64,000 bases of DNA from a virus: positions 64,001 to 128,000 of the IMG/VR virus record IMGVR_UViG_3300045988_165036; one strand, 5' to 3'. The notes under the pieces are model-generated. The model had not been told where the DNA came from. It was given only the letters and a program-made list of their open reading frames with translations, and ran no database searches. Below are positions 5,760 to 63,784 of this stretch, piece by piece. A program made the position numbers and the translations under genes. Positions within the stretch are counted from its first letter, which is position 1. Each line of letters begins with the position of its first letter.

Positions 5760-6040
5760 AAAAAAATAATTTTATTTGGAGGATATTGTGGTCAACCGCC
5801 CAGTTTCCTAAATGAGATGTGGGCTTGAGTAATCGAGCCCACTGATTGATCAGACTAAGTGTTTCGAGCACTACGTTATCAAAGAATATATAGGCACCGT
5901 TGGATGTACTCTCCAGTCTGACGCACTGCGGTATGTGATTAAACAGTTCTGATGGGTAGGAACAGTGTTGCATACGAAAACCTTTGAATAACATTGTCGT
6001 GGAGTAACTACTCTAACATACAGGAGGTTATAGAAACATT
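5760..6040 (+). ncRNA. candidate IscB omega-RNA (structured leader directly upstream of iscB)
   Basis: 280 nt non-coding; 10-bp stem GTGGGCTTGA-GTAA-TCGAGCCCAC (GNRA loop) plus further hairpins; position matches known IscB loci. Confidence 0.5.
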
Positions 6041-6989
6041 GGTGTATGTGTTAAACAAACAAAGTAATCCCTTGATGCCTTGTAAAGAAGCAAAAGCAAG
6101 AAAATTGCTAAAACAAAATAAAGCTATTATAGTAAAATATGAGCCATTTACAATTCAATTGACTTTTGAGTGTGAAAATCAAACGCAAGAAATTTCTCTC
6201 GGAGTTGATGCTGGAAGTAAACACATTGGCATTTCTGCAACAACAGAGAAACAAGTTTTGTATGAAGCAGACGTTGAATTAAGAAACGATATCGTAGATA
6301 AACTCTCTTCTCGTAGAGAAGCAAGAAGAACGAGAAGAAACAGATTGAGATATCGTCCCACAAGATTCAACAATCGAGTTCATTCAAAACACAAAGGTTG
6401 GCTTGCTCCAAGCATCGAGCAGAAAATCAATTCGCATATTCAGGCAATCAAAAGACTTCATCAAATTCTTCCGATTTCAAAAATTATTGTGGAAACGGCG
6501 CAGTTTGATATTCAAAAAATTCAGAATCCAGATATTGAAGGAGAACAATATCAACAAGGTGATCAAATGGGGTTTTGGAATGTACGTGAATATGTGCTTT
6601 TCAGAGATGATCACAAGTGTCAGTATTGTAAAGGAAAATCTAAAGACAATCGATTAAATGTTCATCATATTGAGGGTCGTAAGACGGGCGGAAACGCTCC
6701 GAATAATTTAATTACGTTGTGCGAAACCTGCCATAATGATTATCATCAAGGGAAAATTCAGCTAAATATTAAGCGCGGAAAGAGCTTTCGAGATGCGACA
6801 TTTATGGGCATTATGAGAAAGACATTGTTGTTGAGATTAAGGGAAATATATCCGAATGTTCAAGAAACTTTTGGTTATATTACGAAGAACACCAGAATTG
6901 AAAATAGTCTTCCGAAAGAACATTATATAGACGCAAGATGTATTAGTGGAAATCCTTTAGCAAAACCGTTAGGATATTATCTTTATTAA
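6039..6989 (+). CDS. iscB: IscB RNA-guided nuclease (PLMP, RuvC-I, Arg-rich bridge helix, RuvC-II, HNH, RuvC-III), up to an in-frame TAA
   Basis: NPLMPC; LGVDAGSKHIG; RREARRTRRNRLRYRPTRFNNR; GWLAPSIE...VETAQFDIQK..YQQG; HKCQYC...HHIEG...NLITLCETCHNDYH; KEHYIDA; RBS AGGAGG 6022-6027, then TTG 6039 / GTG 6042. Confidence 0.85.
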   Translation: MVYVLNKQSNPLMPCKEAKARKLLKQNKAIIVKYEPFTIQLTFECENQTQEISLGVDAGSKHIGISATTEKQVLYEADVELRNDIVDKLSSRREARRTRRNRLRYRPTRFNNRVHSKHKGWLAPSIEQKINSHIQAIKRLHQILPISKIIVETAQFDIQKIQNPDIEGEQYQQGDQMGFWNVREYVLFRDDHKCQYCKGKSKDNRLNVHHIEGRKTGGNAPNNLITLCETCHNDYHQGKIQLNIKRGKSFRDATFMGIMRKTLLLRLREIYPNVQETFGYITKNTRIENSLPKEHYIDARCISGNPLAKPLGYYLY

Positions 6990-7570: not shown

Positions 7571-7609
7571 AAAGGAGAGAAAAAAATGACTATTGTTGAC
7601 TTTTATAAG
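7571..7609 (+). other. orphaned strong RBS plus ATG (7586), probably the original primase start, cut off by the TnpB element
   Basis: AAAGGAGAGA then ATG 7586; this frame ends after 29 codons and is +1 relative to tnpB. Confidence 0.45.
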
Positions 7610-8801
7610 AAAGGTGAAAGCGATTATAAAAACAATTCGAGTAATGTTGCTTCCAAACAACAAACAGCAAACTAAATTATTTCAATATGCCAATACTGCT
7701 CGTTTTGCTTATAACTGGGCAATAGGAAGAGAACAAGAAAATTATAAGAATGGTGGAAAATTTATATCTGATGGAGACTTACGAAAAGAGTTTACACAAT
7801 TAAAGAAAACTTCTGAATATGCGTGGCTAAACAATGTTTCTAACAATGTAACAAAGCAAGCAATTAAAGATGCTTGTGAGGCGTACAAAAATTTCTTTAA
7901 GGGAATTACAAAGTCCCCACGATTTAAGAGTAAGAAATATTCAATGCCGAAATTCTACCAAGATAATGTAAGAATTCAGTTTACAGACACACATGTAAAG
8001 ATTGAGGGTTTTGCTACGTCTAAGAAAAAGAATAAGCAAAGACTTAACTGGATAAGACTTGCCGAACGCGGAAGAACACCTATTGGAAATACAAAGTATA
8101 TGAATCCACGCATTAAATATGATGGACTTAATTGGTATATCACAGTTGGAATTGAATACGAAAATTCTACCGCTCCTCCAACCAACGAAGGTGTTGGAAT
8201 CGATTTAGGCATTAAAGATTTGGCAATATGTTCTGACAAGAACAAGTATCAGAATATAAACAAAACCCAAAGAGTTAAGAAGTTAGAAAAAAGAAAGCGC
8301 AGGCTACAACGTTCCATATCAAGAAAATATGAGAATAATAAGAAAGGAGAGCGTTACTGCAAAACAAGCAATATTATAAAAAGTGAAAAAGAACTTTTAA
8401 AATTGAATCACAGACTAACGAATATTCGTCAGAACTACCTACATCAAACAACATCTGAAATTGTAAAACGAAAACCAAGTTTTATCTGTATGGAAGATTT
8501 GAATGTGAGTGGAATGATGAAGAATAAACATTTGTCTAAAGCAGTTCAGCAACAAGGGTTTTATGAATTTAGGAGACAGATTGAATATAAGTCTGAGTGG
8601 AATAACATTCCAGTAATTATAGCAGATAGATTCTTCCCGAGTTCTAAGTTATGTAGTTGTTGTGGAAATATCAAAAAGGATTTGAAACTTAGCGACCGCA
8701 TTTACAAGTGTGAATGTGGAAATATCATAGATAGAGATTATCAAGCAAGTCTAAATCTGAAAAGACATGGAGAAATGTTATTAGAACAATCTGCATTATA
8801 A
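7593..8801 (+). CDS. tnpB: TnpB (IS200/IS605 OrfB-type RNA-guided nuclease), copy 1
   Basis: N-terminal ...LLPNNKQQTKLFQYANTARFAYNWA; RuvC GIDLGIKDLA; ...CMEDLNVSGM; Zn finger CSCCG..CECG; DRDYQASLNL; likely start GTG 7614. Confidence 0.85.
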   Translation: MLTFIRKVKAIIKTIRVMLLPNNKQQTKLFQYANTARFAYNWAIGREQENYKNGGKFISDGDLRKEFTQLKKTSEYAWLNNVSNNVTKQAIKDACEAYKNFFKGITKSPRFKSKKYSMPKFYQDNVRIQFTDTHVKIEGFATSKKKNKQRLNWIRLAERGRTPIGNTKYMNPRIKYDGLNWYITVGIEYENSTAPPTNEGVGIDLGIKDLAICSDKNKYQNINKTQRVKKLEKRKRRLQRSISRKYENNKKGERYCKTSNIIKSEKELLKLNHRLTNIRQNYLHQTTSEIVKRKPSFICMEDLNVSGMMKNKHLSKAVQQQGFYEFRRQIEYKSEWNNIPVIIADRFFPSSKLCSCCGNIKKDLKLSDRIYKCECGNIIDRDYQASLNLKRHGEMLLEQSAL

Positions 8802-8956
8802 CACTTTCAAGTTAATGCAGATATGTACTGGCACGTTAGTCAGGAATTTACGCCTATAGAGTGTACAAGAACTTGTGAGTAGTATATCAGAAATGATTAC
8901 AAAAGCATATACGATGAAATAGGAATGAAACATAAAAGTTTATAACTTTTTATAAG
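7599..8956 (+). mobile_element. TnpB-only IS-like element flanked by ACTTTT(T)ATAAG direct repeats
   Basis: ACTTTTATAAG 7599-7609 and ACTTTTTATAAG 8945-8956; no tnpA. Confidence 0.5.
8802..8956 (+). ncRNA. possible 3' part of the TnpB omega/reRNA (right-end region)
   Basis: Non-coding tail directly after tnpB, by analogy with known TnpB loci. Confidence 0.3.
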
Positions 8957-39366: not shown

Positions 39367-39448
39367 GGCTCCGTGGCGAAATCGGTAAACGCATCCGATT
39401 TAAGATCGGATACCTGTGGGTTTAAGGGTTCGAATCCCTTCGGAGCTA
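39367..39448 (+). tRNA. trnL: tRNA-Leu (anticodon UAA), long variable arm
   Basis: Acceptor GGCTCCG/CGGAGCT; anticodon arm TCCGA-TTTAAGA-TCGGA; T arm AAGGG-TTCGAAT-CCCTT. Confidence 0.85.
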
Positions 39449-40312: not shown

Positions 40313-40389
40313 TGTCGAGTAGCCAAGCGGTAAAGGTGACTGGTTTTGACCCAGTTATTACGTAGATTCGAATCCTGCCTCGACAGCCA
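40313..40389 (+). tRNA. trnQ: tRNA-Gln (anticodon UUG), CCA encoded
   Basis: U1-A72 acceptor TGTCGAG/CTCGACA; D region GCCAAGCGGTAA; ACTGG-TTTTGAC-CCAGT; GCCA end. Confidence 0.85.
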
Positions 40390-56190: not shown

Positions 56191-57453
56191 GGTCAACAAC
56201 CCACAAGCTAAGGCTTGATGGGCTTGTAGCTCGATACGACTTCGTTATTACATTTAATGGTGTAATAATTTATTCGTAAGCATAAACTACCTATCAGGAC
56301 ATGAGCTTGCCCCTAAAATTCTTTTTCCCTCTGTTAAAATATTCTTTGCAGCATTAACATCTCTGTCGTGTACTGTACCGCACTCTGGACAGGTCCATTC
56401 TCTAATCCACAGTGGTTTCCTTCCTGTAACACGCCCACAACACGAACAAATTTGCGAACTGGGAAACCATCTATCAATTTTCTGGACTGTTCGACCTTTA
56501 TCTAATGCTTTATATTCTAACATATTTACAAATTCAGACCAGCCAACATCAGAAATGCTTAATGCTAAATGATGATTGTTCATAAGACCTTTTACATTCA
56601 AATCTTCTAAAGCTATCACTTGGTTCTCGTTTGTAAGCCTATAGGAAATTTTATGTAAATAATCTTTTCTTTGGTTGGCGATATGCTGATGTAACTTAGC
56701 AACTTTTAATTTCTGATTATTATAATTATTGCTACCTCGCTCCATTTTACTTAGCTTTCTTTGTTTTCGTTTCAACTTCGGCAATTCTTTTTTCAAAGAT
56801 TGTAATGCCGGAAACTTCTCACCATCAGAACAAATAACCAAGTCTTTTAACCCCAAATCAATACCGACTTCCTTATTTACTGGCTCTAATTTTTCTGTTA
56901 TTTCTTCATCCTTCCATAGAATAGCAATATAAAATTCACCAGTGGGCGTCATAGAAATAGTACATAATTTTGCAGTCCCAGTTTTATGGCGATGATTAAC
57001 AATCTTTACATATCCCAGTTTTGGCAACTTAATGTTATTTTCTGTAACTGGATAACCAAAAGAAGTCATGGTTTTATAACTATTTTTAAGCTTCTTTTTA
57101 CTTTTATACTTTGGAAATCCAATATTTTTTTCTTTGAAAAATTTAAAAAATGCAGATTGCAAATCCATCTGAGTAAAACACAATGCCATAGAGTCAACTT
57201 CTTTTAACCATTCAAATTCTTTTTTATAAAAAGCAGGAGTATTAATTTTGCTCTTTTGATATTTTTTATAATATTTAATATTATCATATAACGCTTGATT
57301 CCAATACCATCTACAACAACCAAAAGTTTTAATTATGATCTGCTTTTGTTCATCAGCGGGGTAACATCTTATTTTGTATGCCTTAATAATTTTTACCTCC
57401 TAATATAACATTCTATTTTTTGCAATTCCTCCCATCGGCTAAAGCCAATGGGA
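56191..57453 (-). mobile_element. TnpB-only IS200/605-like element, copy 3
   Basis: Left-end hairpin CCATTGGC-TTTA-GCCGATGG immediately after the RNAP stop codon; right-end hairpin CCCA(T)CAAGC-CTTA-GCTTGTGGG. Confidence 0.6.
56287..57390 (-). CDS. tnpB: TnpB, copy 3 (full length only if ATT 57390 is the start)
   Basis: The frame is open to 57399; GGAGGT-AAAA-ATT ATT AAG GCA TAC aligns with GTG GAA AAG GCT TAT of copy 2; GIDLGLKDL; LEDLNVKGL; CSCCG...CPECG; [10 protein letters not shown]. Confidence 0.8.
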
Positions 57454-58589
57454 TTACTCGTCAAACTTCTTTTGAACCTGTTTCGGAATCTTTTTCAACT
57501 TAAATCGTCTTCCAAGATATTCTTCTCCGTCCGCGCACTCAACCGGCGCATATGCGTCCTTTTCTTCAATAACATCTAAAATCTGTTCGTCAAGCAAACT
57601 CCAAGCAAAGTCCCAGTTGAATTTTGAATAACTCTGCGAAAGTGCTTTAATGTATGTCAATGCGTCCATCGAAGCCATTTCAAGTTCATCATATTCGGTA
57701 CGAAGTTCATCTCGAATCGAATCAAGAATTTCCATTCGAATTTCGTCTGCTTGTTCTTCGCCAGAATTGTTAAAAATCTGATTGACAATTGTGATTGCTT
57801 TTTTGTCATTGAATTTCCGATACATATCTCGGAATTTGCCAAGAATCTCCGGGTCGAACTTATACTCATCAAGATCATAATACGGAAGTAGGCTGACGCA
57901 ATTTTTGTTGTACTGTATGTCAAAATCCGTATCTTCAACCATATGGCACAAAATGTTCATCGTACAATTCGTGTTTAAAACCGGGGAAAATTGATGATAA
58001 TTTCTGATAAAATTTTTCTCTTCTGGCGTTTTGTTCTCTTTTGTCAGAAGTTTCTTTAATCTCGTCCGATATGTGCATTTTGCGATTTCGTCGTATCTCT
58101 TTTCGTGTGTTTTATACGAAGTATTCAATTCTGGATATAAATATCTAAAGAAATACGGTTTCTTGTTAATAACAAGGGAGTTATGATATCTCTTTGCTTT
58201 AATTACATCCTCCGGGTCATCTTTTTCAACCTTCTGTGTGCGAAGCCATTCGTCTTTCGGAGGGCCTTTTGCTTCAACGCCCTTAATTCGGTCGATTTCC
58301 TGTCCGTTGATTTCGCGAAGAAGCTTTTTACGCAACTCTATTTCATCTCGCTGACGTTTTTGGTCTGGTCTCTGGAACAATGGAAGCATTGCTTCAAGCT
58401 GCGTGGAATAATTGCTATATGTTCCGACCTTCGTTCCAAATCCACGCAAGTCTGTTTTTACGAATTCACGGTGGCAGATTTTGTGAACAGGAGCCGATTT
58501 TTTGTCGTAGCTAATTGGATTTGTCACATCTTTCATCGAACCTTTTAGGAGAATTTCGTTGTCTGATGACATTACTAGGTCCCCATCGA
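57454..58589 (-). CDS. YonO/RdRP-like single-subunit RNA polymerase, exon 2
   Basis: Begins ..(F)DGDLVMSSDNEILL after splicing. Confidence 0.7.
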
Positions 58590-58844
58590 CTGTTATACCC
58601 TCGGTTTCCCGATATTTATTAGGGGAGTAGACTATACGATCATCGTTGATATTATCTCGGATGCCTTTGGTAGTCGTTGAGAGCTATGGCTTTTCATATC
58701 TCTGCGGATTGTCCAATCCAAAACGTTTTTACTTGATCAAATTGGCGTTATCCAATCTTTAAGTAGTTTTGGCTCTAAGGAGTTTCCCGCATATTCAGGA
58801 TTTTTATTACGCATCACTACGTAAGCGACCTCGACGTTTTCTTA
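58590..58844 (-). ncRNA. group I self-splicing intron (no ORF)
   Basis: - strand core elements: P ATATGCGGGAAACT, Q AATCCGCAGAG, R TCAACGACTACC, S CGTATAGTCTAC. P1 pairs AGCGATT with GGTCGCT (U.G at the splice site); P10 TCGA; 3' end ...AACAG. Confidence 0.85.
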
Positions 58845-60498
58845 AATCGCTGTCCGAATGTCTTAATGTGCTCAAATCATAAATCGAATAAATTATTCCG
58901 CTTTCAATCCATTTATACCATTTATCCGCTTCGCTACTTTTATATAACTTACAATGATTGACTTCGTGTTTGTCCAGAAGCGGGGACCGACATAACACAA
59001 TGTCTTTTTCAGGATCATATCTCTTGTTCCAGAAATTTGAATAAATATATTCTCCAGGAACCTCGCCTTTTGGATCAAGTCCCAACGCACTTCGACACTG
59101 TGCAATTGGATCTGAAATCATAAACGAATAATTGCCTCTAACCCAAATCTTTCCAATCTTTGCTTGAATAATACTTCGAATCAAGTTACGATAGATCTTT
59201 CGTTGAACATATGTGTCTTTTAGAAAGTCTGTATTTTTTACGACAGCCTTCATTGCGAGGCTTTGCGCTCTCGTATAAACATCGTTATACTCAATCTGAT
59301 AATTTTCTGAAAATCCCCCAAGCGAATACAGCATCGCATATAACGGATCTCCGGAGCAAACCTTCTTAATCCAATCAATTGTTGGTTGAACAAGGTTTTT
59401 AATGTCATCTTTATCGATATTCAAAACCTGAATTATCTGATAATTCGCAAGAACCCATTCATCATCAAACTTTCGGTTATATCTCGAAACGCCCCAACCA
59501 ATTTGTGCCATTTCGATATATTCAGAATAATCTTCCCAGCTTGAATAATACTTATGCATCTTGAACTGTGATTCTGAAAGAAGAACATCGATTTCGTCAA
59601 CTTTATATGGATGCCCCCATTTGTCATAAATATATTCAATTCCATTTTCTTTCGCATATGCGTGAAAATCGAACGGGACAAGGTTTCCTTTAACGAATAT
59701 TGAACGAACGACATATGAACTTGCAACATATCCAAGATTCATTTCCTGTGACCATTTTTGCGCCATTTCCGGAGAAACGAGTCCTTGCCCATCACAAGAA
59801 TTCATAGTGATATCGAGAATTCTTTCTTCAACCTTCTTCTTTCCATTTTCGTCCGTTGTGATCCAGTCCAACTTTTGGTTTGGAACTATTGTGAAAAAGT
59901 CTTTAATGACACAAACGCGCGGAGTTGAGACCCACAAAATTGATGATGTAGAAAGAGCAAAATATGCTGAAAGTTTAGCAAGATTGAACTCTTTAACGCG
60001 ATTGTTGAAATCACACATTAATCTATTAGTTAATTCTTCTGCGATTTCGGCATTAACCATTAAAACACAATTATGTCTAATTTGTCCAGCAGATGCACTA
60101 AATCGAACATATCGGATTCCATTAACATAAAAGCCGGATTTTGAAATTCTTTTATATTCTTCTTTCTTTTTTACTTCAACAACAACGAAGTCTTTAACAA
60201 ATAGTGTATTTAGGATTGCTTGCCAAAATATTTTAGCTTCTTTACTTCGTCCCTTTTTTTTTGCTCTATGGAGAGAGTTTCGAAGAAATTGAATATTTGA
60301 AAAAATTTCTTTGTAATTTCTGTTGTCGCCACGAATTTTTCGTGCTTGGTCAAACGCAATATTATCTCCGCAAGAAACTAAGCATCCTTCTTGCGCCGCT
60401 CGGCGTGGAGTATAATCTTTAATATCTAAATTATTTTCGCAAATAAATGCGGAAGAGAGCTTGTAAATCTGATACAAATTCTGTTCTCTAATTGGCAT
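58845..60498 (-). CDS. YonO/RdRP-like single-subunit RNA polymerase, exon 1
   Basis: ...VLCRSPLLDKHEV...LSTLRHSDSD(F); the unspliced ORF runs on into the intron to TAA 58807. Confidence 0.7.
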
Positions 60499-61037
60499 TA
60501 TTCCACCTCTAATTGAAATGCTTGTTTTACCTTTTCTCTTAAGTCGTCAAGAGAGCCATTGTTAATAATTATTTCATCATATTCAAAAAATGTATTCATT
60601 TCTGTTTCTGAAATATGTGATTTTTGTTCCGGAGTAAGTCCGTTGTCAAAATTCGGTCTTTCGATACGAATATTTTTATAGTCAAAATCCAGAAATCCAA
60701 GAGCCTCATTCTTATAACGACAATCTGGAATTAACATATATTCTTCTGAACATCCAAAAGCAATCTGTCGAGCAATATTAACCCAGCATTGCGGATTGTT
60801 CTGCCGATAATATGTTCCGACGCTTTGAAGAATCGTTCTTCCAATTGGTTCTTTGTCGCCTTTAATCCAATTATATGAATTTTCACACAACGACTTAAGA
60901 GCATCGGCAAAATGATATACAAGAACCGTCTTTCCTGCTTTTTCCAATTCTTCTTTCAAGAATGTCGCACTTTGATCTTTTCCGTGTCTCGCGAATCCTG
61001 AAAACAAAATAATTTTAGTCGATTTCACAGTTAGCAC
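60498..61037 (-). CDS. deoxynucleoside monophosphate kinase-like protein
   Basis: ILFSGFARHGKDQS P-loop variant typical of phage dNMP kinases. Confidence 0.5.
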   Translation of the reverse strand: MLTVKSTKIILFSGFARHGKDQSATFLKEELEKAGKTVLVYHFADALKSLCENSYNWIKGDKEPIGRTILQSVGTYYRQNNPQCWVNIARQIAFGCSEEYMLIPDCRYKNEALGFLDFDYKNIRIERPNFDNGLTPEQKSHISETEMNTFFEYDEIIINNGSLDDLREKVKQAFQLEVE

Positions 61038-63708: not shown

Positions 63709-63784
63709 GCCTTTTTAGTTCAGTTGGTGGAACGTTTGACTGTTAATCAAAATGTCGTTGGTTCGAGTCCAGCAAAAGGCGCCA
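63709..63784 (+). tRNA. trnN: tRNA-Asn (anticodon GUU), CCA encoded
   Basis: Acceptor GCCTTTT/AAAAGGC; TTTGA-CTGTTAA-TCAAA; GTTGG-TTCGAGT-CCAGC; GCCA. Confidence 0.85.

Follow-up and report, generated by a model that had tools for sequence, protein, structure and literature searches.

How can a phage make an RNA polymerase whose catalytic motif is not continuous in its genome? The question is raised by a 64,000-nucleotide (nt) stretch of viral DNA (IMG/VR virus record IMGVR_UViG_3300045988_165036, positions 64,001 to 128,000), here called the window and numbered from its first letter, in which a gene related to the YonO/RdRP polymerases is spread over two minus-strand open reading frames (ORFs). 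The ORF list of the window places them at 58807-60498 (-) (563 amino acids, aa) and 57454-58572 (-) (372 aa), as had been said in a preliminary description made from the letters alone, which proposed a group I intron between the two. Having followed this proposal up by comparison with related loci, we regard it as very probable that 58844-58590 (-) is a compact, endonuclease-less group I intron lying in the Phe codon of the DFDGD motif of a YonO/RdRP-type polymerase.

Two exons, one catalytic motif

Exon 1 (58845-60498 (-), 1654 nt) comprises codons 1-551 and T58845, the first base of Phe552, and exon 2 (57454-58589 (-), 1136 nt) runs from the last two bases of that codon through DGDLVMSSD... 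to the stop; both are delimited by the ORF list and the spliced translation, and exon 1 also by the colinearity of uninterrupted homologues. Between them lie 255 nt (58590-58844 (-)) that start with UAAG and end with AACAG. The codons of the motif are spread over 58579-58848 (-), with GAT at 58848-58846, T at 58845, the insert, TC at 58589-58588, and GAT GGG GAC at 58587-58579. Joining T58845 to T58589 keeps the frame and gives a single ORF of 929 aa with DFDGD as residues 551-555; the predicted ligated-exon sequence is GAUUUCGAUGGG, the product reads ...LRHSDSDFDGDLVMSSDNEILL across the junction, and the junction context in the translation is ...LSTLRHSDSDFDGDLVMSSDNEILL. Left unspliced, the exon-1 frame continues 12 codons into the insert and is then closed by TAA at 58809-58807. 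The preliminary description had said as much of the frame, of this stop and of a DFDGD motif formed only after splicing. All its statements on the sequence proved correct on checking, and so exact a join goes well beyond chance. Since the codons of the catalytic motif are split by the intron, the enzyme can be made from spliced RNA only. The ORF list holds no ORF of 40 aa or more inside 58590-58844, and the intron is thus without a homing endonuclease gene. A 5' splice site one base upstream, which would yield DVDGD, was tried and rejected, as the intron would then end in A and the residue in question is aromatic in the homologues.

Compared with 5.8 billion proteins, the spliced product has 776 relatives at E <= 1e-10. 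Among the 120 best, which we examined, 118 run without interruption for about 920-1100 aa, have D[FYWH]DGD where the spliced product has DFDGD, and show no insertion or deletion there. The closest (P0001) is 95% identical over its full length, and another (P0002), in which the motif region is IYDLSTLRHSDSDFDGDLVMSSD, is 86% identical. The contig encoding P0001 (L003) provides an intron-less allele. It shows 90-93% nucleotide identity to the window on both sides, its site sequence around the junction is GATAGCGACTTCGACGGCGAT, and its alignment with the window contains a gap of exactly 255 nt at the predicted site. As the intron-less allele and the reading frame agree, the boundaries of the intron are fixed.

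An allele with the intron was found on another contig (L004), where the insert differs from that of the window at two positions in 255 nt (99.2% identity), namely a G-to-A change in the L6a loop and a change in J8/7, both outside all helices. The L004 exons are only 92% identical to those of the window, with both reading frames intact. This divergence is not evenly distributed: the 50 nt that flank the intron on each side are 100% identical in the two contigs, whereas farther out the identity is 84-92% in exon 1 and 90-100% in exon 2. Co-conversion of flanking markers in the course of an intron transfer would leave such a pattern. A megablast comparison of 24 kb of the window with 50,697 phage genomes gave no match, so that the phage is without a close isolate, and the GTDB genome bins that we checked for its host carried mixed taxon labels.

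The preliminary description had likened the protein to the two-barrel polymerases on the context of its motif, and the spliced product bears this out. It matches the Pfam RdRP family (PF05183) over residues 111-601 with 33.1 bits, against a cut-off of 23.8, and PHROG 8308 over its full length (3.6e-94). PHROGs 25339 and 35857 match exon 1 only or exon 2 only, which suggests that split ORFs have been clustered as separate families. In a tblastn comparison with yonO of SPbeta (SPBc2), residues 122-616 align in one piece across the junction (2e-32), and BLASTP aligns P0001 with YonO over about 550 residues (E = 9e-38, 26% identity). DFDGD 551-555 falls on DNDGD 535-539 of YonO, and D551, D553, G554 and D555 do not vary among 39 homologues.

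At the sequence level, neither the protein nor a 39-sequence profile matched anything in the PDB. The fold was tested on P0001 as an intron-less proxy for the spliced protein. Its AlphaFold model (predicted local distance difference test score, pLDDT, 86.9; predicted template modelling score, pTM, 0.80) matches in Foldseek the maize and Arabidopsis RDR2 (E = 3.9e-17), QDE-1 (8e-15, template modelling score about 0.46) and the Thermus phage RNA polymerases P32 gp64 and P74 gp62 (4e-6), followed by weak local matches to the large subunits of multisubunit RNA polymerases. The comparison with YonO and QDE-1 that had been suggested earlier came out in favour of the assignment, QDE-1 and RDR2 being matched by the model and YonO being aligned by BLASTP. 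Because the Pfam RdRP match, PHROG 8308, the colinear yonO alignment and the fold matches of P0001 all agree, the assignment of the spliced product as a YonO/RdRP-type single-chain two-barrel RNA polymerase is supported, in its structural part by a predicted model. The protein shares with SPbeta YonO and with the eukaryotic RdRPs QDE-1 and RDR2 the position of the DxDGD triad and the fold class. The identity to YonO is only 26-28%, and the C-terminal third is unrelated in sequence. YonO is a single-chain DNA-dependent RNA polymerase that transcribes the SPbeta late genes (Forrest et al. 2017, PMC5467207), activities known for this protein only, and its triple Asp-to-Asn mutant is catalytically dead, so that the aspartate triad is essential (PMC5467207).

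Group I fold of the insert

Read on the minus strand and numbered so that the window coordinate equals 58845 minus the intron position, the insert contains the P, Q, R and S elements that had been listed for it (ATATGCGGGAAACT, AATCCGCAGAG, TCAACGACTACC and CGTATAGTCTAC). At its 5' end, the last exon bases AGCGAUU (intron -7 to -1, 58845-58851 (-)) form the 5' strand of P1 and pair with the internal guide GGUCGCU (intron 15-21, 58824-58830 (-)), which begins 14 nt into the insert. The helix has five Watson-Crick and two U·G pairs, with a U·G pair at the 5' splice site after U58845, as predicted from the letters alone. In the related intron of locus L147, our reading of the sequence shows a compensatory C-G to U-A change in P1 at position -5. 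Upstream of the guide, UCGA at intron 11-14 (58831-58834 (-)) is complementary to the first bases of exon 2 (+1 to +4, UCGA, 58589-58586), and this is the P10 pairing that had been proposed. The end of the intron is likewise as described earlier, the terminal guanosine (omega G) being G58590 (-) at intron position 255, which marks the 3' splice site.

The core follows the P1 guide. The P2 hairpin (intron 22-26 / 33-37, 58808-58823 (-)) has compensatory changes in four of its five pairs, and its 3' strand together with the first base after it contains the in-frame UAA (58807-58809 (-)) that closes the unspliced frame. P3 pairs CCU (intron 46-48, 58797-58799 (-)) with AGG (intron 179-181, 58664-58666 (-)) and forms the P3/P7 pseudoknot. 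P4 is made by UGCGGG of element P (intron 54-59, 58786-58791 (-)) and UCCGCA of element Q (intron 137-142, 58703-58708 (-)), is 100% paired in the alignment of relatives described below, and shows compensatory changes in four of six pairs. P5 (64-66 / 131-133) carries a long P5a-P5b-P5c extension (intron 64-133 in all, 58712-58781 (-)), in which all seven P5a pairs are compensatory. P6 (143-145 / 162-164) and P6a (147-150 / 157-160) occupy 58681-58702 (-) in a register set by covariation; an earlier register for P6, 143-146 / 163-166, was replaced by this one, which RNAalifold supports. P7, the expected guanosine-binding helix, pairs GACUA within element R (intron 170-174, 58671-58675 (-)) with UAGUC within element S (intron 211-215, 58630-58634 (-)), and its 5' strand comes after a bulged C169 and a possible A168-U216 pair. 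P8 (182-185 / 201-204 with an inner stem, 58641-58663 (-)) is 100% paired, three of its four pairs being compensatory, and P9 (221-223 / 245-247) with P9a (233-236 / 241-244) closes the structure at 58598-58624 (-), where a GAAA tetraloop lies at 58605-58608. The insert hence has a P1 with its splice-site U·G, a P10 with a terminal G, and a P3-P9 core with the P3/P7 pseudoknot.

In a local Rfam scan, Intron_gpI (RF00028) was the sole family that matched the insert itself, and the alignment spans model positions 1-253, the insert end to end, with P1, P2, P4, P5, P6, R/S, P8 and P9 in place, in agreement with the preliminary description. An unconstrained minimum-free-energy fold recovered 55 of the 68 modelled pairs. 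Covariation was examined in an alignment of 13 compact related introns (alignment A3), where 92.1% of the cells are paired; shuffles give 79.6%, with 0 of 500 as high, and sliding the partners gives at most 45.5%. In twenty pairs both sides change, and a count of pairs finds compensatory changes in P2, P4, P5, P5a and P8; RNAalifold finds them in 27 of 47 pairs, P6 included, and independently predicts P2, P4, P5, P5a, P6, P6a, P7, P8 and P9a. P3 is only 66.7% paired in the MAFFT alignment owing to gap placement; extracted directly from nine sequences it covaries (UA/AU/CG, CG/UA/GC and so on).

Several observations weigh on the other side. Rfam at its gathering threshold reports no intron in the whole window, and in a permissive scan of the whole window the intron is again absent from the list, so that only the local scan picked it up. 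The covariance-model check proposed earlier gave only a sub-threshold match: the Intron_gpI alignment is full length, but its score of 21.3 bits (local E = 0.003) falls short of the gathering score of 50. The 13 introns of the alignment were retrieved by similarity to the 3' end of the intron and are not an independent sample; P7, P9 and P9a are invariant among them, and the invariance of P7 and P9 means that these helices afford no covariation test. Finally, P3 is only 3 base pairs (bp) long in the window and in L004 and is followed by a U·C mismatch, while the relatives examined have 4-5 bp, and such a short P3 could lower the activity of the ribozyme. As to the scores, the terminase (terL) intron of a Listeria phage is likewise below threshold with 26.4 bits to Intron_gpI, and the intron of locus L140, at the same site as ours, reaches 27.6 bits (E = 0.0055 in 66 kb). 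Sub-threshold scores seem to be typical of these phage introns, and a 2025 survey reports that the Rfam group I model under-represents phage introns (PMC11878797). With the full-length Intron_gpI alignment, the covariation and the exact absence of the 255 nt in L003, the earlier identification holds, and the insert is, as far as sequence comparison can tell, a genuine group I intron of a widespread phage family.

The same evidence allows the rival explanations to be weighed. The best of them, which we still find unlikely, is that the insert is a decayed, splicing-incompetent remnant and the polymerase gene a pseudogene, the phage relying on another polymerase. The truncated P3 with its mismatch, unlike that of all relatives examined, and the sub-threshold Rfam score would fit this, as would the lack of an endonuclease that could maintain the intron and the clipping of the 3' end of the gene by a TnpB element (see below). 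Yet both exons (1654 + 1136 nt) are open and 95-97% identical at the protein level to intact homologues; L004 carries the same intron between exons that have diverged by 8% with both frames kept, and the only two differences between these introns avoid all helices. The short P3 is moreover matched by its neighbour, in that P3 (3 bp) and P8 (4 bp) together have 7 pairs, as they have in L147 (4 + 3).

A naturally split polymerase, in which the 563-aa and 372-aa ORFs would be translated separately and their products come together in the manner of split beta' subunits, with the 255 nt as a mere intergenic spacer, appears very improbable to us. Exon 2 does have an in-frame ATG at 58572 that is preceded by GGGGA, a possible ribosome-binding site, and gene callers annotate such halves separately (P0029; PHROGs 25339 and 35857). 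But the two products would be without F-D-G-D-L-V, that is, without two of the three catalytic aspartates, when YonO is inactivated by the triple Asp-to-Asn mutation (PMC5467207), and the supposed spacer folds fully as a group I intron, shows covariation and is precisely missing in intact alleles. Any other kind of insertion can practically be dismissed, since nothing specific speaks for it beyond the interruption of a conserved motif, as is also made by inteins: an intein is excluded because stop codons break the frame, a group II intron is opposed by the length of only 255 nt and by the lack of a reverse transcriptase and of any domain V-like match, an insertion sequence (IS) or miniature inverted-repeat transposable element by the lack of obvious terminal inverted repeats or target duplication on reading of the junctions (no repeat search was run), and a programmed frameshift site by the need to remove 255 nt rather than 1-2 nt.

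If the insert is a group I intron, the polymerase would be restored by the standard group I pathway. We infer that the intron would splice itself in a guanosine-dependent manner: folding of the pre-mRNA would give the P1-P9 core, P7 would bind an external guanosine that attacks after U58845, held in the U·G pair of P1, P10 would align exon 2, and the freed 3'-OH of exon 1 would attack after the terminal G58590. The ligated exons, ...GAU UUC GAU GGG GAC..., would be the only RNA that codes for the intact aspartate triad, and unspliced RNA would yield a 563-aa fragment that could not be an active polymerase. Recombination or homing between related phages probably brought the intron to this site and probably accounts for its spread.

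Introns at the catalytic motif in related phages

Is this catalytic motif interrupted elsewhere? We mapped 50 IMG/VR loci encoding relatives by tblastn, 27 of them with a full-length match, and in 9 of these 27 the gene is broken at residue 551-553. To place the junctions exactly, we demanded that a U precede the intron, that the intron end in G and that the joined frame encode DxDGD (the splice junction is marked by a slash in what follows). At the same nucleotide as in the window (T/TY of the Phe codon), L147 has an intron of 262 nt that is 83% identical to ours, L140 one of 317 nt with a different core, and L132 and L134 (about 1040 nt) as well as L133 and L135 (about 948 nt) have introns with a different core and a GIY-YIG-like ORF; the GIY-YIG motif of these four was read by eye, Pfam giving only a weak NUMOD3 match. 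Five nt downstream (DFD/GD), L131 carries an intron of 1174 nt with a LAGLIDADG_3 ORF, and 1 nt upstream (D/VDGD), in a divergent YonO-like gene, L072 carries one of 719 nt with an HNH_3 ORF. The polymerases of L131-L135 are 97% identical to that of the window, so that phages which hardly differ have unrelated introns at this site. Judging from these junctions, the 7-nt stretch that codes for the catalytic motif is an intron hot spot, which is new here.

The RNA polymerase site in L072 (GAT/GTCGAC) resembles a site in a DnaE-like DNA polymerase (GAT/GTTGAT), a likeness that ectopic movement between these polymerase genes might explain.

The introns fall into at least four lineages, namely the compact type, the second type with or without a GIY-YIG-like ORF, the LAGLIDADG type 5 nt downstream and the HNH type 1 nt upstream. 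One might speculate that they contest the D-F-D homing site and displace one another among phages with 97%-identical polymerases, that the endonuclease-less intron is kept as an immunity allele of the late-gene polymerase which destroys the cleavage site of endonucleases brought in by co-infecting relatives, and that splicing could also control when the polymerase is made; we put this forward tentatively, as a possibility that is on the whole rather doubtful.

A second position in the gene family is interrupted as well. In yonO of the SPbeta-like Bacillus phages phi3T, Goe11 and Goe14, annotated as two ORFs in their GenBank records, an insert of about 399 nt (L002, Bacillus phage phi3T KY030782.1, 51518-51932) follows YonO codon 625 (the position is codon 626 in phi3T yonO), about 90 codons past DNDGD and outside the catalytic motif. 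The insert has the same 3' module as the intron of the window (see below) and appears from its sequence to be an unannotated group I intron at this second site; Rfam gave it no score at E <= 1. L148 has a probable insert in the same downstream region, near residue 640-650.

The sequence shared most widely lies at the 3' end of the intron. The 3' module, CCCCUAAUAAAUAUCGGGAAACCGAGGG, contains P9/P9a and is common to many phage introns almost unchanged. The last 55 nt match 210 phage genomes (phages of Staphylococcus, Listeria, Enterococcus, Bacillus and others), with 87-94% identity among the matches listed, and the exact 29-nt module pattern occurs at no fewer than 119 IMG/VR loci, at least. 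In the two matching records that we inspected, terL of Listeria phage AG20 and yonO of phi3T, the module lies between split exons. It is 94.6-100% identical in all hot-spot introns of the YonO-family loci. Since it is present in all ten YonO-family inserts, which were retrieved by protein homology, its conservation is not an artefact of selection. More broadly, the 3' 45-55 nt or so (58598-58644 (-); S element, P9, GAAA loop, up to the terminal G) are about 87-100% identical across introns with otherwise unrelated cores in many host genes (also L005-L123 and L131-L148). This peripheral P9 module is thus conserved in its sequence and shows no covariation; it may serve recombination, offer a site for a protein or a tertiary contact, or be needed for selection of the 3' splice site.

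The introns most closely related to the window type interrupt other genes, it appears at or close to catalytic motifs as judged by eye; their loci are L010, L020 and L026 (IMG/VR), L052, L113 and L044. A DnaE-like DNA polymerase is interrupted at ...VLD/VDFDISG, by eye its catalytic Asp motif, and NrdD at an apparent glycyl-radical motif (...TRIVG/); tape-measure genes also host such relatives.

The intron has well-known company. It belongs to a large family in phages of Gram-positive bacteria, and resembles the group I introns of these phages (Twort, SPO1/Bastille-like, Listeria A511-like Herelleviridae, SPbeta bnrdE/bnrdF) in its core elements and in the 3' module UAUAGUCUA-N-UCCCCUAAUAAAUAUCGGGAAACCGAGGGU...G, at 87-100% identity. 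Like it, those introns sit in conserved motifs of essential genes, such as terminase, DNA polymerase and ribonucleotide reductase (PMC11878797; PMC8270828). The intron of the window differs in that it sits in a YonO-type RNA polymerase gene, is very compact (255 nt) and is endonuclease-less. It also has only CCAA between P7 and the 3' strand of P3, with no insertion of the P7.1/P7.2 kind, where the Listeria terL intron has about 150 nt. In a gene for another type of phage RNA polymerase, the multisubunit beta-like gp210 of the Pseudomonas nucleus-forming phage PhiPA3, a putative group I intron likewise lies beside conserved aspartates (Birkholz et al. 2024, PMC11620839); its HNH endonuclease attacks a competitor phage (PMC11620839), while the window intron has none. 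A further intron in a phage RNA polymerase gene is that of gp273/274 of 201phi2-1 (PMC2919709), and that essential phage genes harbour group I introns in their conserved motifs is textbook knowledge (PMC3984707). Our literature search found no paper on an intron in a YonO-type gene. The host gene family is thus new, and the pattern of insertion, a fairly classic one in which a selfish element enters the catalytic motif of an essential phage gene (RNA polymerase genes included), is known; the novelty that the preliminary description had accorded to the locus was set too high, catalytic-motif introns in phage RNA polymerase genes being already documented.

Neighbourhood and significance

The polymerase gene adjoins two genes of different kinds. 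Upstream, a deoxynucleoside monophosphate kinase-like gene (PF21448) lies at 60498-61037 (-), base 60498 serving both as the last of its stop codon and as the first of the polymerase start codon. L003 and L004 keep the order kinase, polymerase, two small ORFs, ThyX-like gene and papain-like protease. Directly downstream, at 56287-57440 (-), there is a tnpB-only element of the IS605 family (Pfam OrfB_IS605 and Cas12f1-like TNB), the tnpB frame of which extends upstream of the listed ATG to a helix-turn-helix (HTH)-like N-terminus with an apparently non-ATG start. The polymerase ends here in ...KKFDE*, where its relatives continue ...QMIIDPETGEVLEE..., and insertion of the TnpB element seems to have replaced the last 18 codons or so of the polymerase, about four codons and the stop being derived from the element. 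L003 and L004 do not have the element at this position.

Other mobile elements lie farther away. At 5791-6989 (+) an IscB-type gene (RRXRR and HNH, 331 aa), preceded and overlapped by a match to the HEARO (omega RNA) family of 128.6 bits, is an OMEGA/IscB element in a phage genome. A second TnpB of 402 aa (HTH, OrfB_IS605 and TNB) is encoded at 7593-8925 (+) and is followed by a RAGATH-18 RNA match of 69.4 bits at 8853-8925. The window thereby holds four mobile elements, the IscB element, the two TnpB elements and the intron. It also holds three transfer RNA (tRNA) genes on the plus strand (39367-39448, 40313-40386 and 63709-63781); the related loci L131, L132, L140 and L147 have tRNAs within a few kb of the polymerase gene, in L140 with an adjoining match to the abiF RNA motif.

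What is understood of group I introns and of two-barrel polymerases is unchanged by this finding. It does correct the annotation, in that two "hypothetical" ORFs, or separate PHROG families, are one polymerase in this phage group, and it extends the range of essential phage genes in which group I introns have settled to the single-chain RNA polymerases of the YonO type. With three families of endonuclease and endonuclease-free introns on one 7-nt site, the locus offers a system for the study of intron turnover, homing-site competition and phage-phage interference, and the hot-spot set is a possible source of new site-specific nucleases.

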